Of a DNA stretch of 64,000 nt, positions 4,416 to 27,887 are shown in pieces (within the stretch, counting starts at the first letter, position 1; each line of letters begins with the position of its first letter). The stretch lies in the NCBI RefSeq assembly GCF_030013595.1, contig NZ_CP122768.1; one strand, written 5' to 3'. The notes under the pieces are model-generated. The model searched no databases and was not told where the DNA came from. It was given only the letters and a program-made list of their open reading frames with translations. This stretch comes from Escherichia coli (GTDB lineage: Bacteria; Pseudomonadota; Gammaproteobacteria; Enterobacterales; Enterobacteriaceae). The position numbers were made by a program, and so were the translations under genes.

Positions 4416-4641
4416 ATCAGACTCCTGAGTAGTTTTTTAATTACAAACACCAACAATCTTAGTCAATAATTAATCTAATACCATCAAATAGTTAATCATG
4501 ATTTTTGTTTTGTGATTCTGATTAAGAAAAAGAAAATACCAGACGATAAGACAAAATATCAAGCGTTGTGAAGAAATGTTATGTGCTCTTTTGCGTCTAT
4601 AGTCATGATGTCAAATGAACGCGTTTCGACAGGAAATCATC

Positions 4642-5862
4642 ATGAATAAATATCAGGCAGTGATTATTGGTTTTGGCAAGGCTGGAAAAACATTAGCCGT
4701 CACGCTGGCAAAAGCAGGTTGGCGTGTGGCTCTCATCGAACAATCAAATGCAATGTATGGCGGGACCTGTATTAATATCGGCTGTATCCCAACCAAAACA
4801 TTGGTTCATGACGCACAGCAGCACACAGATTTTGTCCGTGCCATACAGCGTAAAAATGAAGTGGTTAATTTTTTACGTAATAAGAATTTTCATAATCTTG
4901 CGGATATGCCCAATATCGACGTGATCGACGGCCAGGCGGAGTTTATCAATAATCATAGCCTGCGTGTTCATCGGCCTGAGGGAAATCTGGAGATTCATGG
5001 CGAGAAAATTTTTATTAATACCGGTGCACAAACCGTGGTTCCGCCAATTCCTGGAATTACCACCACGCCTGGTGTATATGACAGCACCGGATTACTTAAT
5101 CTAAAAGAATTGCCTGGGCATTTAGGTATTTTGGGCGGCGGATATATTGGCGTTGAGTTCGCCTCTATGTTCGCTAATTTTGGCAGCAAGGTAACCATTT
5201 TAGAAGCAGCTTCGCTGTTTTTGCCTCGGGAAGATCGGGATATTGCTGATAATATCGCGACGATTTTACGCGATCAGGGCGTCGATATTATCCTCAATGC
5301 CCATGTGGAGCGAATCAGTCACCATGAAAATCAAGTGCAAGTGCATAGCGAGCACGCCCAACTGGCGGTGGATGCACTGTTAATAGCTTCCGGTCGTCAA
5401 CCAGCTACCGCTTCGTTACATCCAGAAAATGCCGGTATCGCAGTAAACGAGCGCGGGGCAATTGTCGTTGACAAGCGATTACATACCACCGCAGACAATA
5501 TTTGGGCGATGGGAGATGTTACCGGCGGGCTGCAATTTACTTACATATCACTAGATGATTACCGCATTGTACGTGATGAGTTACTGGGTGAAGGCAAACG
5601 TAGTACTGATGATCGGAAAAATGTGCCTTATTCCGTATTTATGACACCGCCCCTGTCCAGGGTTGGTATGACAGAAGAACAAGCCAGAGAGAGTGGTGCT
5701 GATATTCAGGTGGTGACATTGCCTGTAGCTGCAATTCCGCGCGCCAGAGTGATGAACGATACCCGTGGGGTATTAAAAGCGATTGTTGATAATAAAACCC
5801 AACGTATATTAGGGGCATCACTGCTGTGTGTTGACACGAGAGTATTCAAAACACGCCAATAA
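4642..5862 (+). pseudogene. rclA: rclA (pyridine nucleotide-disulfide oxidoreductase), 5' portion; reading frame leaves native sequence after ...LLCVD (about 5835) and ends in element-derived codons TRVFKTRQ*
   Basis: GFGKAG Rossmann motif, CINIGCIPTK redox-active disulfide; K-12 RclA is 441 aa, here first 398 aa then insertion. Confidence 0.8.
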
Positions 5863-5903
5863 CCTCTTGATTCAATTGAAGTCGAAAATTTTAAGTCAAA
5901 AAT

Positions 5904-5929
5904 CGTATAGCTTAACGTGTAGCTAAAAA
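5904..5929. repeat. Sub-terminal repeat cgtatagctTaacgtgtagctaaaaa (left copy), probable integrase-binding/att-associated site
   Basis: Near-identical copy at 16432-16457 (1 mismatch). Confidence 0.55.
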
Positions 5930-6479
5930 TGTTTGCTGCAAAAGTATACAATTTTAACCGTTATGACTCCCTGTTATCCGTTATCAAGCTGGTGGATGAT
6001 CATGGATAACCCGTTATGGGAATCCCCATATCGGCATCAGGCCCATGCCATAACAAAAACCCCATATTCGTGGGTTTTCTGTGTTGTGGCTATTCTGCCG
6101 TTGCCGTGCTGGTGGATATTTCCGGTATGTGGCTCACCATATCGGCATCACGCCCACCAGCGCGACGCATTTTTTTAATTTCGCGGGTGTAAAAATTTGA
6201 CGGGGCGGGCGGTCCTATAAGCAATGGGGGGTAGGGATTTCGATCCCCCCTCCTGAATGCAATTTTCCGTATGTGGCTGTGCGGCAATCATACTCGTCAC
6301 ATGTTTTTGACAATAAAAGGCCCGACCGTGAGACTCACAAACAAAAAAGTTACGGAGAAACAGGGGATCGGGCTCGGTTGCCGCTAAATCTATTCAATTA
6401 AAAGAAGATGTCAATAGGGAAAACGAAAAAAAACAATGCTGATATTGTCATAATTTGAACAAAACCACTATATGTAGTT

Positions 6480-6710
6480 TTAGTTCATGAGGTTAGTCGC
6501 TACCAGATGCGTCAATAGTTTTTTGCTATTAATAATCCCTCTTTTTCCATCGGGAGCTTTGCACTTGTCACTACCTGGTAACTCCTGGTGGCGTTCCTGT
6601 TGCAGCACAACGGAAACAGGCGCTGAACACCTGTTAATTTTGCTTGCAGGTTGTTTGATTTCGGCAATGCTGCGGATCATCTCCAGCATATCGGCTTCGG
6701 TGATGGTCAT
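6480..6710 (-). CDS. Hypothetical small protein (76 aa) in satellite
   Basis: ORF only; lies just beyond the cos-like repeat block. Confidence 0.25.
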   Translation of the reverse strand: MTITEADMLEMIRSIAEIKQPASKINRCSAPVSVVLQQERHQELPGSDKCKAPDGKRGIINSKKLLTHLVATNLMN

Positions 6711-6718
6711 GATTTACA

Positions 6719-6995
6719 CCTTAGGAAATCTTAGGGGCTGGTTGACACTTTCCGGCTTAAGACCTTAACAAATCTTAACATCGCAGGTTGACACACTTGA
6801 CACTTTTTCGCGAAAAACCTTATCAAACCTTAGCATTTCTAAGCATGGCAACTTGACACTTTTCGCGATTTTTTCGGCTTTTTGACGTGGTAAATCTGGC
6901 GCAAAGCCAGTAACGGCGGGGTTTACAGCGAGGTTGACACTTTTTCGCGTTCAGAGTGTAAAGTGTCAACCTGGCAAGCTGCTCAACTTGACACT
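6719..6995. repeat. Cos/pac-like repeat block: at least 6 direct copies of TTGACAC(TTTT) (6742, 6788, 6797, 6853, 6934, 6988) plus one inverted copy (6963) interleaved with CTTAnnAAAnCTTA repeats
   Basis: Repeats counted directly; adjacent to TerS-like gene. Confidence 0.5.
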
Positions 6996-7003
6996 TTTTG
7001 AGG

Positions 7004-7531
7004 TCATTGATGGCCTGATTTTTCCCACTCAGCCAGGGCGTTTAGTCCGGCTTCACTCCAGTTATCCAGCTCATCGGGACAATCACCTGCAACATAGCAG
7101 AGCTCACAACGCAGCATACGAATTGCCAGCCTGGCATTTTCCCGAAAATCATACTGCTCAAAGTAATATTGCCCAGCATAATCCTCAAGGCAGATAGCAC
7201 CATCATCAAGAAATTGCACTTCACAGCATAGTTCCCCGGCTGCATCCTGTACACGCTGCTGTATGTCATTGTCCGTTACTGGTGCAGGGATTTTACCGTC
7301 TCTGGCCTTAACTGCTTTCCAGAACTCGCCCCACGTCATTTCCAGCGTTCTCTCTGGCCACATTTCAGAAACGGTATCTTTTCCCTGTGCTGGTGGGCTG
7401 TTCCGCTGCTCTGTCGCTTCCACATCGATTTTTTTACCGGACATGACCACTTCGCCTTTCTCGATCCAGTCGTAAACTGTCTGGCGGCTTACGCCTTTGT
7501 GTTTGGCATATTCTGCCTTGCTCATAAACAT
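7004..7531 (-). CDS. Terminase small subunit-like protein (Nu1-type N-terminal HTH); candidate packaging-redirection protein (Rpp-like)
   Basis: N-terminus KAEYAKHKGVSRQTVYDWIEKG resembles lambda Nu1 HTH; no large terminase or capsid gene in element. Confidence 0.55.
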   Translation of the reverse strand: MFMSKAEYAKHKGVSRQTVYDWIEKGEVVMSGKKIDVEATEQRNSPPAQGKDTVSEMWPERTLEMTWGEFWKAVKARDGKIPAPVTDNDIQQRVQDAAGELCCEVQFLDDGAICLEDYAGQYYFEQYDFRENARLAIRMLRCELCYVAGDCPDELDNWSEAGLNALAEWEKSGHQ

Positions 7532-7701
7532 GACACTTCCCCTCAGACTGTATTAATGCGCCGGAAAGCGCGTGTATTTAAATCATCCCAGGAACCGTTG
7601 AGCACCAATTAGTTGCGCGAAGTAATCGGCACCAGCGTTCCGAACAATTTCCAACTTAACGTTCTGATCATTGTTTCCTGCTGCAGGGACAATCCCACGA
7701 T

Positions 7702-8355
7702 TCATAGCCAGCGCCCGGATATTTCTTCCAGTTTTTCCAGAGCTGGCTTGCAGGCCGCATCAATAACTTCACGGACCATTCCGGCGAGCTGTTCTTCTTC
7801 TGTCGGCGTTGTTACTTCCACACCTGATGGTTTCCCGCCCTTATCCCATACGCCCAACGGTACGAGCGCAACGTGATCGATAAGAAATGGCGTACCCTCA
7901 ATGAAAAAATTGTCCTCGCCCATTACATCAGGAACTTCTGCCCCACCGGACGCACCACAAAACACAACCGACGGGCTGGTGGATACCTCCCCCCGTGCTT
8001 TCTGGATGTAATCGATGATTTCCTGCCCGTAAATCCGGCATACGCCCCACACCTCGTCACCGCGAATATACGGCAACATGACGGTGCCAATAATGCGCGA
8101 CCGTTCGCCCACGTCTTCAAGGGTTTTGCTTTCGGGATGGTCGATAATGACGGGTACTCCGGCGCAACGTTCCAGGAACTGCGGATTGAGATAAGTTTGC
8201 GGTGAACGCCAGACAAATTCTTTTTCTTCGGCGCGATAGGCCATTCCGGTTCCTGTGATACGCAGGTTAATCAGCCACATGTTGGAAAACTGATAAGGCG
8301 ACGGTAGCTGACCGTCCCGAATCTGCTTTGCCGCCTCAATTTCTGTTAAAAGCAT
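7702..8355 (-). CDS. Hypothetical protein (217 aa), satellite morphogenesis/packaging region
   Basis: ORF with coding-like composition; no motif recognised. Confidence 0.45.
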   Translation of the reverse strand: MLLTEIEAAKQIRDGQLPSPYQFSNMWLINLRITGTGMAYRAEEKEFVWRSPQTYLNPQFLERCAGVPVIIDHPESKTLEDVGERSRIIGTVMLPYIRGDEVWGVCRIYGQEIIDYIQKARGEVSTSPSVVFCGASGGAEVPDVMGEDNFFIEGTPFLIDHVALVPLGVWDKGGKPSGVEVTTPTEEEQLAGMVREVIDAACKPALEKLEEISGRWL

Positions 8356-8419
8356 AATGTCCCCCGGTTATAAGCAATAAGCCCCACCAAATCCGGCAGG
8401 GCTGAAATCAGCACGTTTT

Positions 8420-9013
8420 TCATGCCCCCGCGAGGCTTGCAACGTTAATTTTAACCAGGCGACGGGGAGGGATTTTGAAAGCACTAAGCCAGTTATTCGG
8501 ATCCCCCTGATATTCAGTAATCCGCCGTCCGGCTTCATCCATTCTTACGGTTTTACGCAAATAGCCCGGCGTATTTTCCACAGCCCACTGAACACTGTCT
8601 TTTGCAGCCTGGTAAATCTGATCTTCCAGCACCGCCAGCGTTGCAGAATCTGAAACGGAACGAATATCCACATCACTGAATTTTTTAGCCAGCTTCTGTG
8701 CACCAATTAATGCACGCTTGCGGTAATCCATCGACTTTTCACCAGCAAACGGGGCTGGAGCGCGACGGCCCATATTGCTGTATGCGGAATCCGCTTTAGC
8801 CTGGGCTTCTGCCAGTGAGGATTCATCTTCGACTGACGCGACGATGTTTTTATTCGCGTCATCCTCGTCCGCTTTTGTGAAATCCTGTGCGGGGATCGCA
8901 TTCAGAATTTCGATAATCTCCTGCGGAGTGCTGCCCTGCGACTCTGACAGAGCGTTAACCACCTCCATCAGTTTTAATCGCAAATCTTCTTTGCTTGCTG
9001 GCATTTTTACCAC
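8420..9013 (-). CDS. Hypothetical protein (197 aa), acidic and Ala/Glu-rich, scaffold-like
   Basis: ORF; composition resembles phage scaffolding proteins (inference only). Confidence 0.4.
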   Translation of the reverse strand: MVKMPASKEDLRLKLMEVVNALSESQGSTPQEIIEILNAIPAQDFTKADEDDANKNIVASVEDESSLAEAQAKADSAYSNMGRRAPAPFAGEKSMDYRKRALIGAQKLAKKFSDVDIRSVSDSATLAVLEDQIYQAAKDSVQWAVENTPGYLRKTVRMDEAGRRITEYQGDPNNWLSAFKIPPRRLVKINVASLAGA

Positions 9014-9043
9014 CTCTCTTTTTTCACCAAAAAATCACGACCA

Positions 9044-9241
9044 TCAGGCCGGACGTTCTACGGGATAAAGCGCCCGCTGCATTAAACGCCGGGCGACCTC
9101 ATGAATGCTCGGAGCAATCCCCAGCGGAGAATTGCGGCGTTCCTCGTCCTGGATGCGCTGTAATGCTTCAATCTGATCACGAGCGAGTAAAACGGGTTTC
9201 ACGCTGGCTTTTCTCATAGTCATATCTCCTGAACAAAACAA
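9044..9241 (-). CDS. Hypothetical small protein (59-65 aa)
   Basis: ORF between PerC-like gene and the 197-aa gene. Confidence 0.3.
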   Translation of the reverse strand: MFCSGDMTMRKASVKPVLLARDQIEALQRIQDEERRNSPLGIAPSIHEVARRLMQRALYPVERPA

Positions 9242-9418
9242 TGATTATGATTGCACAAACTGAAATAACGATCTACATCATTGCAATTTATGAAACAATA
9301 ACGCATGATGATCGCGTTCTTCCCATTGACTTCAATCACCTGAAAAACAAAGCCCGCAACACTTCTGGCTGCGGGTTTTTTACTGGCACAAAAAAGCCGG
9401 GAAAAATCCCGGCCTCCG

Positions 9419-9706
9419 TCACTGACTGCAATTTTTCGATCCAGGGTATTTCCTGAATGCCTTACCATTGGGCTGATGTAATCCCATCCCGGCATGTGCC
9501 CGGCTGATGGTTTCGCGCATTTCCCCGAAATTATCCTGCCTTGCTGGTGGGCGTGCTGCCTTGCGGATACATTCCGCGCGACGTTTTGCCGCCTGTTCCC
9601 GTGCCTTGTCATCATTCGCCAGCATGATGACCTCAGCCCACCGCGCCGCCGCTCTCCGGTACAGACCACGCGCTTCCAGTGCTTCCGCTTTGCTGTCGTG
9701 AATCAT
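9419..9706 (-). CDS. PerC-family-like transcriptional activator (95 aa)
   Basis: Small basic protein with N-terminus MIHDSKAEALEARGLYRRAAARWAEV typical of prophage PerC homologs (from memory). Confidence 0.45.
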   Translation of the reverse strand: MIHDSKAEALEARGLYRRAAARWAEVIMLANDDKAREQAAKRRAECIRKAARPPARQDNFGEMRETISRAHAGMGLHQPNGKAFRKYPGSKNCSQ

Positions 9707-10245
9707 GCGCCTGTTTTCTCCTTTGCTGCCCGGCGCTGACGTTTGCGCTTCTCATTCAGCGCCACCAGCCGCGTTTCTGCGTCCTGTTGTTCCTGTGGTG
9801 TCACCTCGCCGCACGGCTGGCCTTTCAGGTCGTAGCGTACCCCACCAGCCATTAAGGCGCGGTAATAGCGCGGACACTGCGCATAAGATGCCAGCGTCGC
9901 ACGCAATGCCCCTGGACCGAATGCCAGCCCCCTGACGGCGAGATCCTGCATCAGGTCGTCGAATATCCCCACCTTAAGCGGCTTCGGTGCTTCCCGGCTG
10001 AATAATTCAGGCCACAACTCAGTGAGGCGGTTAACGCGCCTGCGGTTTTTGCGCTGGCGTTTGGTCATATGCCGCCACGGTGTCGCCCCTGTGGGCTTCT
10101 GCTGCGCTTTCTGGTTACCGGGCATCACTTTATGCGCCGATGTGGTTTTATCCTGCTCCTGCGCCGCCTGCGTCGTTTTCTGCGGCGTGCCGTAAATGCC
10201 TTTCGGTTTTCTGTTAATGGTCAGCTTAGTCATGCTTTGCCCCAT
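9703..10245 (-). CDS. ProQ/FinO-domain RNA-binding protein (180 aa)
   Basis: PKPLKVGIFDDL ... YAQCPRYYRAL ... RYDLKGQPCGEVT matches ProQ/FinO N-terminal domain pattern; K/R-rich tail. Confidence 0.6.
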   Translation of the reverse strand: MGQSMTKLTINRKPKGIYGTPQKTTQAAQEQDKTTSAHKVMPGNQKAQQKPTGATPWRHMTKRQRKNRRRVNRLTELWPELFSREAPKPLKVGIFDDLMQDLAVRGLAFGPGALRATLASYAQCPRYYRALMAGGVRYDLKGQPCGEVTPQEQQDAETRLVALNEKRKRQRRAAKEKTGA

Positions 10246-10392
10246 CGTTTTTACTGGTTGCTACGTTGCCCAACGGCACTGACACAACATTCTGTTTTCA
10301 TTTTTAACATTCCTGATTTTTTAATTCCTCACCTGCTGCACAGTGAAAATTTATGAAGTTAATAACAATATGATTTTAAATGTATTTTTAAG

Positions 10393-10713
10393 TACTCACT
10401 TTTTAATCCTTATATATACGCAAAAGTGAGGTAAATAGTTAAGTTTTAGTTAATATCTTGCATGGTGTGTTTTTTAACCTACCTGTTATTTTTATTACCT
10501 CATTTCTATTAACTCACCATTCCTCACTTTTGTTCCTCACTTTTTATTATTCTTGTTCTGCTCCTCAGTCGTTTTCTTTATTGTTGTAATCTGTTGTTTT
10601 GCAATGTGTTTTTAACTCCTCACTTTTTGACCTATATACAGGTGAGAAAGTGAGGAGTGGCGTTGATTTTTTGTTAAATTACCCGCCATCCTCACTTTTG
10701 CTCCTCACTTTTT
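10393..10713. repeat. Iteron-type replication origin: at least 7 copies of CCTCACTTTT (direct and inverted) in AT-rich DNA immediately 3' of rep
   Basis: Copies at about 10395, 10421 (inv), 10522, 10534, 10617, 10645 (inv), 10691, 10703. Confidence 0.6.
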
Positions 10714-12127
10714 ACAGTGGGCGCACATAATCACCGTCAATAGCGATTACGCCGTCGCTTTCCAGCTTGTACAGCCAGCGCCGGAAGTTTTTCATTTCAT
10801 ACCCCAGCTTTTTCATATCATCGCGGAGAAGGGCGATAGTGCACGCCTCCCCGTGTGCTGTTCGCGTTCTGATGCACTGCCATAGCGCAGCGTGATTTTC
10901 CGTCTTGTTCCCGGCCTCCTCGATGCGTTCCAGTTCAACAGGTGGGCGCGGCTTATCCACAACCACCAGCGACGTGATTAACTCCCCGTCAGTGTCGGTA
11001 AAAAGCTCCACCACGCGTAAATCATATGCAGCCTCTTTCAGTTCCTCCGCGTCCTTCATTTTGGTGCAGGAGATAACCAGGGCTTCACTGTCCGCACCTT
11101 CACGGCGAATACGGTATTCAGCGTCCAGAGATGCACGAAATGCACTGGAACCACGCGCCCCTTTTGTTTCATCCTTGCCGGAATGGTGAACCACCAGTAC
11201 CGTGGCCCCTGTGCGTCGTTTCAGTTCGTCACATCCACGGATAAACGCCCCCATATCCCGCGCGTCATTTTCATCATTACCGCCAAAGCAACGCGCCAGC
11301 GTATCCAGAATAATCATGCGTACCGGTTTACCCGTTTCCCGTTCAACCTGACGGGAAGCGATGACCATTTCATCAACATCAAGCGGGACCGCCGGAAAAA
11401 TCGGGCGGTTTACCAGGTACAGATTTTTCACCCGTTCATCATTAACGATTTCCCATGCTTTGATACGACGAGGAACACCGATCCCGCCCTCACCAACGAC
11501 ATACATAACCGCACCATGTACAACCCTGCGACCTCCCCAGTGGCGACCAGTGGCAACATGACACGCCCAGGAACACGCGAGGAACGATTTATAGGAACCG
11601 CTCGCGCCGTATGTGCTGCACAACGAATTAGCCGGAATCACGCCCTTAACGACATAATCAAGCTGTGTGTCGTATCCTGCAGATCCAATACTCATTGGTA
11701 GCGTGGTTTTTCGCTGGCTGTATTGCTCGTCAGTAAGTATTTCCCCGCGCTCTGCCTGTTCGCGGATCCGTTGCAGGTAGTCGTGCCAGTTCTCCAGCTT
11801 CTGGCTGTGCATTCCCTCAGGGTAATAATTCGCATCCCGTACACCTGCCGCCGCCAGTTTTTGCCCGATGGCATTAATATTTGACGGCTTGATGTGGCCT
11901 GCCTTGTACAGCCGGACACAATAGCGACCATCGTCGATAATTTTCAGGTCTGCCAGTTCGTCAAGCTGGCTGTCTCCCAGCCATACAGGCGGAACATTGT
12001 CGCCAGCAAGTCGCCCGTCCTGTTCCTGCCATTGTTTCGCGTGCGCCCAGGCATCACTACCCGCAAAAATAATGACTTCGGTCATTTTGTCGTGTGGCTG
12101 TTTTTTTAAGTTCGGTGCCAGTTTCAT
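10712..12127 (-). CDS. RepA-like replicative helicase / AAA_25-type ATPase (471 aa)
   Basis: Walker A GASGSYKS, Walker B MIILDTL, VVHHSGK; adjacent iterons. Confidence 0.7.
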   Translation of the reverse strand: MKLAPNLKKQPHDKMTEVIIFAGSDAWAHAKQWQEQDGRLAGDNVPPVWLGDSQLDELADLKIIDDGRYCVRLYKAGHIKPSNINAIGQKLAAAGVRDANYYPEGMHSQKLENWHDYLQRIREQAERGEILTDEQYSQRKTTLPMSIGSAGYDTQLDYVVKGVIPANSLCSTYGASGSYKSFLACSWACHVATGRHWGGRRVVHGAVMYVVGEGGIGVPRRIKAWEIVNDERVKNLYLVNRPIFPAVPLDVDEMVIASRQVERETGKPVRMIILDTLARCFGGNDENDARDMGAFIRGCDELKRRTGATVLVVHHSGKDETKGARGSSAFRASLDAEYRIRREGADSEALVISCTKMKDAEELKEAAYDLRVVELFTDTDGELITSLVVVDKPRPPVELERIEEAGNKTENHAALWQCIRTRTAHGEACTIALLRDDMKKLGYEMKNFRRWLYKLESDGVIAIDGDYVRPL

Positions 12128-12423
12128 TTTGTGCCCCTGAATGCGTTAATCATGTTTTTCATTTTCTGAATATTTGCCCGTGCCTTTGCGTTGCTGGTGG
12201 GCTGTTTGCGTGGTGTGGCCTGTATCAGTGAAAAATCACGCCGGAACTGATAAACAGGCATCACGCAGTCGTAGCTGTACCCATCACGGCGGTAAGTAAC
12301 GCACCGTCCGGCAATACTTTTAATCGTTACCGTGCCGCCGTAGTTATCCCGGAAAATATCGCCGGGGCGGATTTCAGGCCGAGGGAGACCACTGGCAGTA
12401 AAGCCAGAATTTTTCTTTTTCAT
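12124..12423 (-). CDS. Hypothetical protein (99 aa), translationally coupled to rep (4-bp overlap)
   Basis: ORF; operon packing. Confidence 0.45.
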   Translation of the reverse strand: MKKKNSGFTASGLPRPEIRPGDIFRDNYGGTVTIKSIAGRCVTYRRDGYSYDCVMPVYQFRRDFSLIQATPRKQPTSNAKARANIQKMKNMINAFRGTK

Positions 12424-12427
12424 GGTT

Positions 12428-12628
12428 TTATTTTCCTGTCAGCAGTTCCGGTTTTATTTCCGCACGAATACAGAGTTCAGAAAAAAATTCAGGAGAACCA
12501 ACAATCTCATTACTTTTCAGTCGGCATTGTGATTTCACTTTCCCTTTATCCAGGTAAACCAGTATGCGTCCGGTGAAATCATCTGGCACACTCAGGGTAA
12601 TTGTCATTGTTGCTTGCTGATTATCCAT
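12428..12628 (-). CDS. Hypothetical protein (66 aa) with one FTG-x-LV repeat unit
   Basis: Shares about 50-aa repeat with upstream 121-aa protein. Confidence 0.4.
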   Translation of the reverse strand: MDNQQATMTITLSVPDDFTGRILVYLDKGKVKSQCRLKSNEIVGSPEFFSELCIRAEIKPELLTGK

Positions 12629-12986
12629 GATTCACCCCCTGAATAACCTGATAACCGCAACTGGTCAGCAATTCGATAAATTCCGGCAGTGTTCCGAAAC
12701 AGCAATCATCTCGCAGCCGTTCTCGGGATACTTCAACGCCGTTTTCGTAGTGACTCACCATGCGTCCGGTAAAATGCAGATCATCATCGTGATGGCTCGT
12801 TAACGGCTTAATCAGTCGCGCACGTTCTGCCAGCTCCAGCAATGCTTCAACGCTTCCGGCAATTGCACCATCCGGCAGGTGATAATTACTTGCCACGCGT
12901 CCATTCTCCACGTTAACCAGTAGCTGCCCGGTGAATTTCTCATCAAACTGAATGCTGTTAAGGTCAGAAATTGACAGGTTAATCAT
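12621..12986 (-). CDS. Hypothetical protein (121 aa) with two internal FTG-x-LV repeat units
   Basis: Internal duplication visible in translation; 8-bp overlaps with neighbours. Confidence 0.45.
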   Translation of the reverse strand: MINLSISDLNSIQFDEKFTGQLLVNVENGRVASNYHLPDGAIAGSVEALLELAERARLIKPLTSHHDDDLHFTGRMVSHYENGVEVSRERLRDDCCFGTLPEFIELLTSCGYQVIQGVNHG

Positions 12987-13344
12987 GGCGTACCTCCTGG
13001 CGAATACGGGCAGCGAATACCATCACGCAGCCATCAGGAGATTGCTGGCGTGCTTCCTGTTCGCTGGTGGCCACGATGTGAATCACGCGCGGTTGTGCGG
13101 TGCTCAGGGCGATAAAACGCCAGATAAAATTGTTTTCGCATTTCTGAATAAACAGCGTGTTTTCTTCGCGCCCTTTCCATGTTGCCGAGATATAGCCCAT
13201 GCCATTGAGCATCTCGCAGGCATCAACCAGCGTATCAGCGGCTACGTGTACAGTGTTTTTACCGTCAGCTATGCAATCACGGTGCACCGCCAGGAAGGTG
13301 TATATAAATTTAGGGTGAGTTTGGGTATGCTGTGTTCCAGCCAT
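12979..13344 (-). CDS. Hypothetical protein (121 aa); first gene of alpA-distal operon
   Basis: ATG at 13344 with AGGT RBS; the 478-aa ORF-track extension to 14415 is judged spurious. Confidence 0.45.
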   Translation of the reverse strand: MAGTQHTQTHPKFIYTFLAVHRDCIADGKNTVHVAADTLVDACEMLNGMGYISATWKGREENTLFIQKCENNFIWRFIALSTAQPRVIHIVATSEQEARQQSPDGCVMVFAARIRQEVRHD

Positions 13345-13545
13345 AATCGTTACCTCATTTAACGGTTTGGTTAGAAGCCCCGTTACTGCTCCAACAGTGC
13401 GGGGCTTCGTCGTTTCAATTGCTGAATTGCATGTATCAGCCCTTGTGGTATTCAGATTACATTTTGGTGAATACCATTTCAAGTCTTTTTTGGTATTCAC
13501 TTTTGTATTACACTGCATCCCGTTATTAATCGGAGGTGCAAACAT

Positions 13546-13849
13546 GTCCACGAGTTCTGTTAACAATAAGTCACAGCAACTGAATGCCAGATTTCCACAT
13601 GAAGTAGTGAGTGGCATTGAGGCATCCCTACAGCCAGGGGAAACTAAAGCGAATTTTATAGTTACGGCTGTACGCGGTGAGATCGCCCGCCGCCAGGCAG
13701 AAGGAAGCGGAGAAAACCCCCTGGTTTCTTCGCTCGATGCGCTGGCGCAGGTGGAAAAAATCGGAGTCAAAGCTGCCGAGGAGATCGGGCAGCTCGTCAC
13801 CGTCGCACGTGAAGAACTCCAGCGCCGCAAGGCCAAAGAATCAGAATAA
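13546..13849 (+). CDS. Putative ribbon-helix-helix-like DNA-binding protein (101 aa), divergent from the rep operon
   Basis: GGAGG RBS; inverted repeats TGGTATTCA / TGAATACCA at about 13445-13500 upstream. Confidence 0.4.
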
Positions 13850-13906
13850 TAACTATCATCGCCGTGGTGTGAGGAACTCCGGCGCATTGCTTTACAGGTA
13901 CACAGA

Positions 13907-14107
13907 ATGACCAACAAAGAATCAACCAAAACACCATCACCAACCCGGAAGAGACGTCGCAAAAATATGACGCACGAGCATGAATCAGACAGATTCGCGC
14001 CGTGTGCGTTTGTCCTTGAGACGTTCCTTAAAGAGTACAGGCGCACAAAATTAGGGCCACATACCTGGAAAACATCGCGACATAGCGATATTAAAGAGCA
14101 GGAATAG
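13907..14107 (+). CDS. Hypothetical small basic protein (66 aa)
   Basis: ORF downstream of RHH-like gene; R/K-rich N-terminus. Confidence 0.3.
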   Translation: MTNKESTKTPSPTRKRRRKNMTHEHESDRFAPCAFVLETFLKEYRRTKLGPHTWKTSRHSDIKEQE

Positions 14108-14240
14108 CCCACCAGCAAGTCAGCATATTCACCATAATGACCCTCGGTTAAACCTAGAGTCATTGGTGCAAACCTGACACATTGCCCACCAGCCAGCAAA
14201 TCGCTATGATATTTGGGCTTATGTTTAGTGTTTTCCCATT

Positions 14241-14268
14241 GGCGACCGCCCCCGGTCGCCTTTGTTTT
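14241..14268 (+). terminator. Rho-independent terminator (GGCGACCG-cccc-CGGTCGCC + T-run)
   Basis: Perfect 8-bp stem followed by TTTGTTTTG. Confidence 0.55.
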
Positions 14269-14321
14269 GCCCGTTATCCGGCAATTGTGGCGCTTCGCCA
14301 CACGGTTGATATAATTCCCCT

Positions 14322-14392
14322 GCACTGATCCATTTTTTTCGCAGCAGGTTAATTGTTCGCAAGGGCGCTCCGGCAACGGGGCGCTTTTTGTT
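14322..14392 (+). ncRNA. Candidate ~70-nt small RNA: extended -10 (TGaTATAAT, 14307-14315) to terminator hairpin 14361-14389 with GNRA-like loop and T-run
   Basis: Promoter-like element and terminator ~70 nt apart in a 310-bp non-coding gap, convergent with alpA 3' end. Confidence 0.3.
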
Positions 14393-14419
14393 ATGTTCAT
14401 CGCGTTACGCCTCACACCA

Positions 14420-14626
14420 TTACGCAGCCGTTCCGCGCGCTTCTTCCTCGCGCTCTTTCAGCCAGGCCAGCACTTCATCTTCATACCAGCCAACACGACG
14501 CAGACCGATTTTGAAGCCTTTCGGGAATTTTCCGGCGTTGATCATGTCCTGTAGCGAACTGTCTGCCTTGATGCGCAGAATATTTTTTACTTCCTGACGG
14601 GTAAGTATTTTTCTGATTGTTTCCAC
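14420..14626 (-). CDS. alpA: AlpA-family transcriptional regulator (68 aa)
   Basis: Typical AlpA/Vis-like size and HTH (LRIKADSSLQDMINAGKFPKGFKIG) next to integrase. Confidence 0.75.
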   Translation of the reverse strand: METIRKILTRQEVKNILRIKADSSLQDMINAGKFPKGFKIGLRRVGWYEDEVLAWLKEREEEARGTAA

Positions 14627-14690
14627 TATGTTTTACCTCGTTAATCCGGCGTATTCCGGTGATAAATACGGTAAAACAGGGCAGGGCGGG

Positions 14691-14732
14691 AAAAACAGTA
14701 CCCACCGTTTTAAAACGGTACCCACTGTTTTT
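14691..14732. promoter_or_regulatory. Tandem operator-like sites AAAAC(A/G)GTACCCAC(C/T)GTTTT x2 upstream of alpA
   Basis: Two 20-bp near-identical units in the alpA promoter region. Confidence 0.4.
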
Positions 14733-14795
14733 ATCTCATTGATTACGCTTTTCTTTCTGCAAAAAAATAGCGACCGCAAAGGGCCGCTATTGTGA

Positions 14796-15026
14796 TTACC
14801 GTTTCCACTTCTTAGGTCGCCCACCGCATTTAAGGCTGGTGGGCCTCAGCACCTTGTCGATGCTTTCAGCCAGATTTTTCGATGCACCACGCGAGCGCAA
14901 AAAACTGACTACCTCGTGTTTTGTGGGGGCTGTTGATTTGTCTTCCGGATCGTATGTTGACCAGAATTCACGATTTGCCATTAACGCCAGTTGCAGCCCT
15001 TCGCCGTAGGCGGTGGTATTTTGCAT
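14796..15026 (-). CDS. Hypothetical small protein (76 aa) between int and alpA
   Basis: ORF only. Confidence 0.25.
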   Translation of the reverse strand: MQNTTAYGEGLQLALMANREFWSTYDPEDKSTAPTKHEVVSFLRSRGASKNLAESIDKVLRPTSLKCGGRPKKWKR

Positions 15027-15124
15027 AATAGAATTTTCATATACTCCGGCCTTGTCGTTAAATTTGTGGCAATTATACGATGGTTTGGCATGGTTTGCAT
15101 CGCTTTTACTGGCTTTTTGTACAG

Positions 15125-16366
15125 CTACACGGCACGGATACCCCTTTTACCGCTGGCTATGGTCACTCCGGTAGCTGCAGCCTCCACAAATTCACCCCAC
15201 CAGCGCATAAGCACCACGCGCTTTTCCAGGTAGTTACTTCGGTTATATGCCCGCCTTACCTCGTTCGTGTCCACGTGTGCGAGTGCGGCCTCGATTACGT
15301 CCGGTTCGAATCCTTCCTCGTTCGCTGCTGTGCTGAATATGGCGCGTAATCCGTGAGACACCAGCACACCAGCGTAACCCATCCGGCGTAATGCAGCGTT
15401 AGCGGTCTGGCTGCTCATTGGCAGCATCGGATTTTTAAGGCTGGGAAAAACGTGTTCCCTGTGTGCGCTGATTGGCTTCATGGTTTCCAGTACAGCCATA
15501 GCCTGACCGCAAAGGGGGATCACATGGTCACGGCGCATCTTCATGCGTCCGGCTGGAATCGTCCAGGTTTCGGCATCGAGATCTATTTCTTCCCAGCGTG
15601 CGGCGGCTGCTTCGGCTGGGCGTGCTACGGTCAGCAGTTGCCACTCAATCAGCAATCTGGTTTGCCGTTCTATGCTGGCGACCGATAAATCGTGCATTAG
15701 CTGCGGTAGCTGTTCCGGTCGGATGGTTGGCATGTGCTTTTTGGTGGGTGAGGGGAATGCCTTGCGGACGTTCGCGGCGGTGTTGATGTCAATCAGCCCA
15801 CTGTTGGCGGCAAAATCCATCACTTCATTGATGCGCTGCAAAACGCGTTTCAGAGTTTCCAGGTTGCCGCGTGCTTTAATGGGGGTGAGTATCTCAACAA
15901 AGCGGCGAGCGGTGAGGGTATCTATTGGCGTGTTTCCGATGTACGGGAATACGTATTTTTCCAGGGATCGCCAGATATCCTTAATCGTGTTGTAAGCCAG
16001 ATTCTGGCCTTTTTTCATCTCGTACCAGTCCGAGGCAACTTTTTCGAACGTGTTGCCCTTTTTCCGGCTCTCTGCTTCACGTTTCCGGCGTTCATGGTCC
16101 TGTGGGTCAGTTCCCTTTGCTATTAGTGACCTGTATTCATTCCGTCGCTCTCTGGCATCAGACAGGGAAACATCATTCAGCGATCCAAGGCTGATAATAG
16201 TCCGTTTTTTATCTGCCGGGCGGTAGTACGTAAAACGCCATATTTTTGATCCGGAGGGCTTCACCAGAAGAAATAATCCTCCGCCATCCTGCAGGGTGTA
16301 TTCCTTTTCCCCTGGTCGTGCGTTTTTGATCTCCGTAATGGTTAGTGGGGTGGTTTTTCGTGCCAT
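15125..16366 (-). CDS. Tyrosine site-specific integrase (P4-type, 413 aa)
   Basis: N-terminal arm-binding-like region and C-terminal catalytic domain (HGLRAIFST ... R..Y); adjacent repeat cluster. Confidence 0.85.
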   Translation of the reverse strand: MARKTTPLTITEIKNARPGEKEYTLQDGGGLFLLVKPSGSKIWRFTYYRPADKKRTIISLGSLNDVSLSDARERRNEYRSLIAKGTDPQDHERRKREAESRKKGNTFEKVASDWYEMKKGQNLAYNTIKDIWRSLEKYVFPYIGNTPIDTLTARRFVEILTPIKARGNLETLKRVLQRINEVMDFAANSGLIDINTAANVRKAFPSPTKKHMPTIRPEQLPQLMHDLSVASIERQTRLLIEWQLLTVARPAEAAAARWEEIDLDAETWTIPAGRMKMRRDHVIPLCGQAMAVLETMKPISAHREHVFPSLKNPMLPMSSQTANAALRRMGYAGVLVSHGLRAIFSTAANEEGFEPDVIEAALAHVDTNEVRRAYNRSNYLEKRVVLMRWWGEFVEAAATGVTIASGKRGIRAV

Positions 16367-16380
16367 GTTTTTTTACCCAT

Positions 16381-16457
16381 CGGTAGCTATATGCCTGGTC
16401 GTAGCTATACGGCTTTAGCTACACGCTGGACCGTATAGCTAAACGTGTAGCTAAAAA
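16381..16457. repeat. Integrase-proximal repeat cluster (GTAGCTATAC / CGTATAGCTA / CGTGTAGCTA inverted and direct units) including right copy of sub-terminal repeat (16432-16457)
   Basis: Matches left copy at 5904-5929. Confidence 0.55.
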
Positions 16458-16509
16458 ATCCGGTTATAACCCTATCTTACCGATTCAATCCGGCGACTGA
16501 AAACAACAA

Positions 16510-16543
16510 AAAAGCCCGTTAATCAGTAAATTAACGGGCTTTC
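16510..16543 (-). terminator. Hairpin AGCCCGTTAAT-loop-ATTAACGGGCT with T-run on minus strand
   Basis: 11-bp stem; on the minus strand followed by TTTTTTGTTGTTTT. Confidence 0.4.
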
Positions 16544-16555
16544 AATAGGTTACCG

Positions 16556-16710
16556 ATGCTGTCCGATATTCAATTTGGTCGGCACGAGATGATCAATATA
16601 GTGAAAATGGTGATGGATGCCGGGCTGCCTTATAGCATATTACGCGATCAGATATTTACTCATCCGTCGATGAGCGAATCACTCAATGATCTATTTTCAT
16701 TAGTCAAATA
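16556..16710 (+). pseudogene. rclA: rclA 3' remnant encoding ...HEMINIVKMVMDAGLPYSILRDQIFTHPSMSESLNDLFSLVK*
   Basis: Matches remembered RclA C-terminal dimerisation region; in-frame ATG at 16556 is element-derived. Confidence 0.7.
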
Positions 16711-16819
16711 AACTCAAAATCAGACGCCAGAACAAATATTCTGGCGTCTCAGAGAAAAGAATCTTATTAATTCCCTGTTACTTTATAACTTCTTAATCAC
16801 TTCATTGATGGTATTTTAT

Positions 16820-24720: not shown

Positions 24721-27644
<2,924 letters not shown>

Positions 27645-27887
27645 CTAAACTTTCAGGAGATTTATTATGAATAAACGTATCCTCACGATTGCGCCATTCT
27701 TCTTACCGATATTCTGACACACATCATTAACTTTCTATTTTTACTCTTTTCTCCACCATAAATTCAATAAAAGCACTAACAGTAATTATAAATAAAAACA
27801 AAGCCAAAAATCCTGGTTCCAAAGCTGGTAACAACTAACCAGTTAAAATATACGCATCAAAATCAGATAAACATTTGAGGTATTGTC

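Follow-up and report, generated by a model that had tools for sequence, protein, structure and literature searches.

Expression of alpA alone triggers excision and runaway replication of PICIs (PMC6092414, PMC10803314). In EcCICFT073 and EcCIMP1, in which alpA follows int as in the island described here and acts as master regulator, the alpA promoters are activated by AlpA itself and induced by helper phages (PMC6092414, PMC11773190). The present island lies in a 64-kb stretch of DNA that was analysed as a whole (the window). EcCICFT073 and EcCIMP1 differ from it in their AlpA allelic types and in their upstream repeats, and they carry neither the AAAACNGT palindromes that are the subject of this analysis nor a 76-aa ORF designated p76. 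No experimentally defined cis element of a PICI alpA promoter was found in the literature searched, and no published description of the present motif was found.

The late promoter PLL of the satellite P4, upstream of vis, is comparable with the alpA promoter of the window in that it serves the first gene of the leftward operon and that this gene codes for an AlpA/Vis winged-helix protein (30% identical). The vis leader of P4 is homologous as well: ATTAACGAGGTA is identical, a CCGG hairpin is present, and an anti-Shine-Dalgarno helix (GCUACC:GGUAGC) is analogous to that of the window. Neither promoter has a usable -35. P4 Vis reportedly binds PLL and autoregulates it. In contrast to the window, PLL is served by Delta/Ogr zinc-finger activators via a TGT-N12-ACA dyad at about -55, present at P4 9150-9133. 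A Delta/Ogr-type site was considered for the window and rejected, the TGT-N12-ACA dyad being absent from the alpA upstream region; no recognisable Delta is encoded by the window's island. The AAAACNGT palindromes, in turn, are missing from P4 and from the 38 P4-like versions compared.

Tandem phage operators (lambda OR1/OR2, 434) share with the element two-fold symmetric units with conserved half-sites and a free centre, as well as the arrangement of two units 20 bp apart on one helical face over -10 and -35, if the transcription start proposed below is accepted. They differ in that the window has no adjacent cI/Cro-like gene (the neighbours are p76 and alpA), in that the half-site is unrelated, and in that the promoter is weak and not strong. 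Proteins of the HTH_17 class (lambda Xis, BldC, RdfS) occupy arrays of sites at roughly one protomer to a DNA turn and can act as promoter activators (PMC11963761). Their arrays (lambda Xis X1-X1.5-X2, BldC, RdfS) resemble the element in the fold class of AlpA and in a core repeated about once per turn, and lambda X1/X2 also in the 20-bp repeat architecture; however, they consist of head-to-tail direct repeats that are often loose, whereas the half-sites of the window alternate and are tightly conserved. The AlpA/ABE antitermination system of P. aeruginosa was rejected as a model. Its protein is unrelated (>140 aa and 21Q-like, against the 68-aa Phage_AlpA protein), the shared name is a coincidence, and the ABE sequence GGGACG between -35 and -10 is absent from the alpA promoter of the window. 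Set beside these systems, the element would be an ordinary kind of control element, namely an operator on the promoter of a satellite's master regulator.

Island context and geometry of the paired palindromes

The window contains a satellite island of the PICI type of about 10.7 kb on the minus strand (about 5863-16555), which splits the coding sequence of rclA into halves at 4615-5862 and 16556-16711. The insertion into rclA looks like an unusual secondary integration site with inactivation of rclA, because close relatives with integrases 83-99% identical are located at tRNA-Pro beside yejM, or beside eptB in the island L011, and because no tRNA gene is present in the 64-kb window. Arm-type repeats AGCTACACGTTWAGCTATACG with 16 identical nt were found at both island ends (5914-5929 and 16442-16457), and TATAGCTAC repeats close by at 16400-16440; these island-end repeats presumably are the integrase arm sites. 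The two island junctions share a short AATTGAAT.

On the minus strand, int is followed by p76, an intrinsic terminator, the palindromes and alpA. Beyond alpA lie small ORFs, one of them for a DUF4222 protein, and then a gene for an AAA_25 replication protein; further island genes code for ProQ-like, PerC-like, head-related and small-terminase-like proteins. This gene order is shared by Gram-negative PICIs (PMC6092414, PMC10111431). The positions of the features around the promoter are collected in Table 1. Downstream of alpA, a 478-aa minus-strand ORF (12979-14415) looks spurious. The real gene at this place is apparently antisense to it, on the plus strand at 13544-13849, and codes for a 101-aa RHH-like protein of the YlcI/YnfO family (PHROG 6522, E = 1e-46). 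The alpA start codon (14624-14626) is GTG (...CATAGTG), whereas many close relatives have ATG (...CACGATG).

Table 1. Features of the int-alpA region; positions refer to the window
Feature	Position	Strand	Basis or remark
int, P4-type tyrosine integrase of the island	15125-16366	-	ORF and family match
p76, 76-aa ORF	14796-15026	-	ORF list
Intrinsic terminator of the int/76-aa unit	14766-14791	-	10-bp stem followed by T run
Promoter-distal unit	14712-14731	-	sense AAAACAGT-GGGT-ACCGTTTT
Weak -35-like TGGGTA, 18 bp upstream of TACTGT	14719-14724	-	PWM scan; contributed by the distal unit's variable centre
Central perfect 16-bp palindrome at the unit junction	14704-14719	.	ACCGTTTT/AAAACGGT, direct reading
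Promoter-proximal unit	14692-14711	-	sense AAAACGGT-GGGT-ACTGTTTT
Candidate -10 TACTGT (AACTGT in the second island group)	14695-14700	-	PWM scan, weak (2.8 bits in the window, 6.0 in L011)
Leader-helix 5' arm UGUUUUACC, in the invariant block TGNTTTACCGTATTT	14670-14678	-	inverted repeat, alignment, folding
Tandem 10-bp repeats CACCGGAATA and CGCCGGATTA	14642-14661	-	alignment
Leader-helix 3' arm GGUAAAACA	14629-14637	-	overlaps SD GAGG (14639-14636); ends 2 nt before GTG
alpA, 68 aa, GTG start	14420-14626	-	Pfam Phage_AlpA/HTH_17; PHROG 'excisionase and transcriptional regulator'

A sequence-only reading had described two adjacent, internally near-palindromic copies of 20 bp, and these were confirmed by direct reading at exactly 14691-14732. 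On the plus strand, AAAACAGTACCCACCGTTTT occupies 14692-14711 and AAAACGGTACCCACTGTTTT occupies 14712-14731; an extra A and an extra T flanking the units complete the span. The same reading had placed the copies between int and alpA. They are indeed directly upstream of alpA, but p76 and the terminator also intervene after int. The element ends 65 bp upstream of the alpA start codon, beyond the terminator of the int/76-aa unit.

The units are 18/20 identical and were recovered by repeat search as a 20-nt direct repeat of 90% identity with 20-nt spacing; the whole element is also a palindrome with 22-nt arms of 82% complementarity. Each unit is an 8-4-8 near-palindrome, in which the 8-nt arms are complementary at 7 of 8 positions and enclose a 4-nt centre. 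Read along the sense strand of alpA, the element is AAAAACAGT-GGGT-ACCGTTTT/AAAACGGT-GGGT-ACTGTTTTT, the slash marking the unit junction. It thus consists of four 8-nt half-sites of alternating orientation (AAAACNGT / ACNGTTTT / AAAACNGT / ACNGTTTT), and the two 4-nt centres are direct copies of one another. Dyad axes recur about every 10 bp, and the spacings of the four ACNGT cores are 9, 11 and 9 bp. The degenerate pattern, searched with a tolerance of up to 3 mismatches, has these two matches and no other in the 64-kb window, where 0.02 were expected from shuffled sequence (none of 100 shuffles gave two). Exact half-site clusters are absent from the rest of the 64-kb window.

Conservation among related islands

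A 731-bp query reaching from the 3' end of int to alpA matched 441 of 5,426 complete E. coli genomes, with identities from 99% down to about 70%. The 42-bp element is accordingly put at about 7% of these genomes (371-441 of 5,426). The matches include two island groups that are only about 72% identical over the 731 bp. Conservation was assessed with 59 related loci, which represent 15 distinct versions of the element; in an alignment of the wider interval 29 distinct versions were compared, 15 of them distinct within the element.

The half-sites AAAACNGT/ACNGTTTT show little or no variation among the 15 distinct versions, and 32 of 50 alignment columns are invariant. The 4-bp centres take 5-7 forms (overall GGGT, GAGT, GGAT, GTAT, TCTA, TATA, GACT, TGGT and GGGA). 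In the proximal unit both half-sites are invariant in all 15 versions, the centre occurring as GGGT, GAGT, TGGT, GGGA or GACT; in the distal unit, the left half-site and the centre are the parts that vary most among relatives. The flanking non-coding DNA, including the terminator and the DNA between the elements, cannot be aligned between the two groups although the half-sites are kept. The second group has an unrelated sequence with terminator function at the equivalent place. Between the palindromes and the conserved block that follows lie 12 nt, which differ in sequence but keep their length. In L011 a 400-bp insertion parts p76 from alpA, and the element stays with alpA. Half-sites that are kept while centres and flanks are free to diverge, with changes that are not compensated, are, as judged from the alignments, the signature of a protein-recognition footprint and fit an RNA helix less well.

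Only a single island lineage of E. coli has the motif. When IMG/VR was scanned for the exact pattern, 51 contigs were obtained; nearly all measure 7-13 kb, the motif lying about 1.65 kb inside one of their ends. All 51 are satellites themselves and encode the trio of int, p76 and alpA. A scan of 100,044 species genomes gave four matches, none of them enterobacterial. Two of the four belong to the planctomycete MAG UBA9295 (Phycisphaerales) and carry ACCGTTTTAAAACNGTACGNACYGTTTT (L069 3342-3369 and L070 410-437), which closely resembles the element; on L070, genes for an ECF sigma/anti-sigma pair follow it at a distance of about 240 bp. Homologues of AlpA, p76 or the integrase were not found on these two contigs, and ACCGTTTTAAAACNGTACGNACYGTTTT is probably an independent motif.

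Other AlpA-type islands have upstream repeat arrays of their own. Six direct AAAACTTCCA boxes were found in L097 (2250-2415), four GTTTTGAGACAACAT boxes in L011 (2930-3000), and two copies of GACACAAYCC upstream of alpA in EcCICFT073 (L066 7440-7480). Repeat arrays ahead of alpA thus seem to be general and their sequence lineage-specific.

Promoter and leader RNA of alpA

No sigma-70-like promoter was detected by a consensus scan of 14300-15300. In a position-weight-matrix scan the best conserved candidates reached 2-3 bits, while 5.4 bits is the median for 200-mers of random sequence. A clear alpA promoter of 11 bits (TTGACT-18-TATGCT/TATTCT) is present in the sister islands L007-L010, which are devoid of the motif. 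The arrangement in L007 (TTGACT-18-TATTCT-19 nt-TTACCGT) parallels that in the window (TGGGTA-18-TACTGT-20 nt-TTACCGT), and in the 38 P4-like versions a CA[A/T]AAT -10 is placed 7-8 nt ahead of the leader-helix arm.

The leader of alpA contains TGTTTTACC (14678-14670), which is complementary to GGTAAAACA (14637-14629), the latter overlapping the Shine-Dalgarno sequence. RNAalifold predicted this 9-bp long-range helix in all versions, with z-scores of -2.3, -3.65 and -3.5. The Shine-Dalgarno sequence is masked by this helix and, in the second island group, the start codon is covered too. One base pair of the helix differs between the two groups by a double change, from U-A to A-U. The loop holds tandem repeats of the type CRCCGGAWTA, present in two copies in the window and in three in L006 and L017, which contain a small CCGG hairpin. 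The helix that masks the Shine-Dalgarno sequence, its compensatory change and the analogous helix in the P4 vis leader suggest translational control of alpA by the leader (14629-14690 region).

From this leader helix, the homology with the P4 vis leader and the parallel in L007, we infer a transcription start upstream of position 14678, the simplest place being near 14688, where [T/A]ACTGT would serve as -10. The palindromes would then span about -4 to -43 and overlap the core promoter, with dyads near -13.5, -23.5 and -33.5. A -10 at TACCGT/TATTTA, with units centred at -41 and -61, was downgraded after the covarying leader helix had been found. If the start were nevertheless near 14656-14661, the units at about -41 and -61 would be upstream activator sites and not an overlapping operator.

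Within the leader, TGTTTTACCGTATT (14665-14678) matches the lambda Xis site X1 TGTTTTACAGTATT (lambda 27640-27655; L072 about 139-152) at 13 of 14 positions. None of 500 shuffles reached 13/14, and the block is situated 27 bp downstream of the palindromes. The likeness deserves mention as the fold of AlpA is Xis-like, but it is probably a coincidence because the block is an arm of the RNA helix.

Candidate ligands and alternative explanations

The two palindromes are probably a protein-binding regulatory site for the transcription of alpA. They had been described in the sequence-only reading as a likely binding site of the regulator that controls induction. In favour of an operator-like role, the sites are real, show the selection pattern of a protein site and are located on or at a very weak promoter; the identity of the regulator, its part in induction and the sign of its effect we infer. 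A sequence-specific DNA-binding protein would occupy the four AAAACNGT half-sites on one face of the helix, and its occupancy would set whether RNA polymerase can use the intrinsically very weak alpA promoter, the -10 ([T/A]ACTGT) being placed inside the proximal unit and the -35 region in the distal unit. The most likely ligand would be AlpA, a small winged-helix protein of the excisionase/HTH_17 class, autoregulation of alpA being known from other PICIs and from P4. The element would then act as an autoregulatory switch, by which a small helper-triggered burst of alpA is turned into full induction or is limited. The complete statement, an alpA-promoter operator in a PICI-type satellite that serves as an AlpA-occupied autoregulatory switch, appears nearly balanced between right and wrong, leaning slightly to the latter.

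AlpA as ligand is the leading candidate and at the same time a tentative assignment, more doubtful than firm. The AlpA of the window matches HTH_17, and the ACNGT cores at 9/11/9 bp can be compared with the spacing of about one HTH_17 protomer per turn. In L097, a different AlpA recognition helix goes together with the lack of p76 and with six different AAAACTTCCA boxes upstream of alpA, and in CFT073 both the recognition helix and the upstream repeats differ from those of the window. L007-L010, however, have a near-identical AlpA recognition helix and no motif. The similarity of AlpA to that of the window is 72-74% in these motif-free islands, compared with 75% in the second group, which has the motif; AlpA similarity is therefore no predictor of the motif, whereas the presence of p76 does predict it. 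Also against AlpA, the alternating half-sites would suit a symmetric dimer better than head-to-tail arrays of Xis-like monomers, and no half-site cluster was found near the island ends, where a role as excisionase would need sites. No paper was found on PDB 8C3T, the nearest solved structure of the AlpA family. A use of the palindromes as integrase-arm or excisionase sites at the attachment site was rejected, the arm repeats (AGCTAYACG) being placed at the island ends, 1.7 kb away, without a half-site cluster.

An inducing signal other than AlpA may dock at the palindromes, in the form of a helper-phage or host protein that switches alpA on, or, in a variant, of a host repressor that is displaced during helper growth; this is considered unlikely. 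Infection by helpers switches on alpA reporters without SOS and, in part, without AlpA, since the response persists in delta-alpA, through a factor left unidentified in those studies (PMC6092414, PMC11773190); the route of helper induction has been called open in the field (PMC10803314). Symmetric tandem units of the 8-4-8 type are typical of dimeric HTH proteins, and the promoter is too weak to fire unaided. A BLAST search of the element against 50,697 phage records nevertheless gave chance-level matches only, the motif-bearing IMG/VR contigs are all satellites themselves (51/51), and the motif occurs in none of the species-representative enterobacterial genomes. The motif is not known to match the consensus of any E. 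coli regulator. Two further binders were rejected: the heptamer TACCCAC of host NarL sits in the variable centres and is not conserved, and the RHH protein of the island (YlcI/YnfO) is present in CFT073 as the identical WP_000190587.1 without the motif. More improbable than an external signal is that the palindromes are a repressor operator for p76, as the Stl-like master repressor of a Gram-negative PICI. The repressor would be made constitutively together with the integrase and would sit on both units (at about -13 and -33), keeping alpA silent until a helper product removes it. Lambda OR1/OR2 on PR have the same geometry as units at these positions, and with transcription starting as proposed the -10 and the -35 would be covered by the units. 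p76 is encoded at every one of the 59 loci that bear the motif, whereas six related loci without p76 (L007-L010, L097 and L098) are without the motif; L011 keeps both in spite of the 400-bp insertion between them. In addition, p76 shares a transcription unit with int, and its tail is basic (GGRPKKWKR). On the other hand, it has no match in Pfam, NCBIfam or PHROG, and its model (pLDDT 79.6) is a three-helix bundle without a DNA-binding match in the PDB (best Foldseek E-value 2.5). Its most conserved motif, EFWSTYDPED..TAP, and the acidic third helix are more suggestive of a surface for contacts between proteins, and genes at this position in PICMI satellites are needed for excision and not for regulation (PMC10803314). 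Moreover, L067 has a p76-domain protein beside a similar AlpA without the motif, the linkage of p76 and motif may merely reflect one inherited block of DNA, and so weak a promoter hardly needs a repressor. That this PICI lineage senses its helper at the palindromes, either by docking of a helper protein or by removal of a Stl-like p76 repressor through a helper product, is conceivable but rather improbable; if it were true, the element would be the first defined cis element and molecular induction route of a Gram-negative PICI. The 42-bp element offers a ready-made bait and handle for the question of how a helper phage switches alpA on.

Very unlikely is an action of the element as RNA, by which read-through from the upstream terminator would yield a long hairpin serving as attenuator, processing site or stability element. 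For the sense RNA a folding energy of -16.4 kcal/mol (z-score -2.55) was calculated, 96% of the alignment cells can pair, one pair has gone from G-U to U-A by changes on either side, and two variable positions still allow wobble pairing; a weak terminator-like hairpin was flagged by a scan at 14720-14703. The folding figures do not discriminate, however, because any DNA palindrome scores as an RNA helix. A double change is seen in only 1 of 17 pairs and in a single sub-lineage, several substitutions in the distal half-site (AAAACGAT, AAAACGTT, ACAGTTTA) disrupt pairing and have no compensating partner, and the centres evolve as direct repeats and not as complementary ones. Rfam gave no match for the element. 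A strong terminator lies 30 bp upstream, and the start proposed above is downstream of the element. Least probable of all, to the point of being barely credible, is a neutral tandem duplication or chance palindrome without function: the general frequency of A/T-rich intergenic repeats is all that speaks for it, against a chance expectation of 0.02 and half-sites that were selectively kept while the neighbouring non-coding DNA was replaced. A protein-binding operator on the alpA promoter is the reading preferred to both.

p76 itself is a free-standing copy of a conserved C-terminal domain (EFWSTYDPE..TAP...GRPKK) whose other carriers, about 610 uncharacterised proteins, are 200-250 aa long. L067 has such a longer protein between int and alpA as well.
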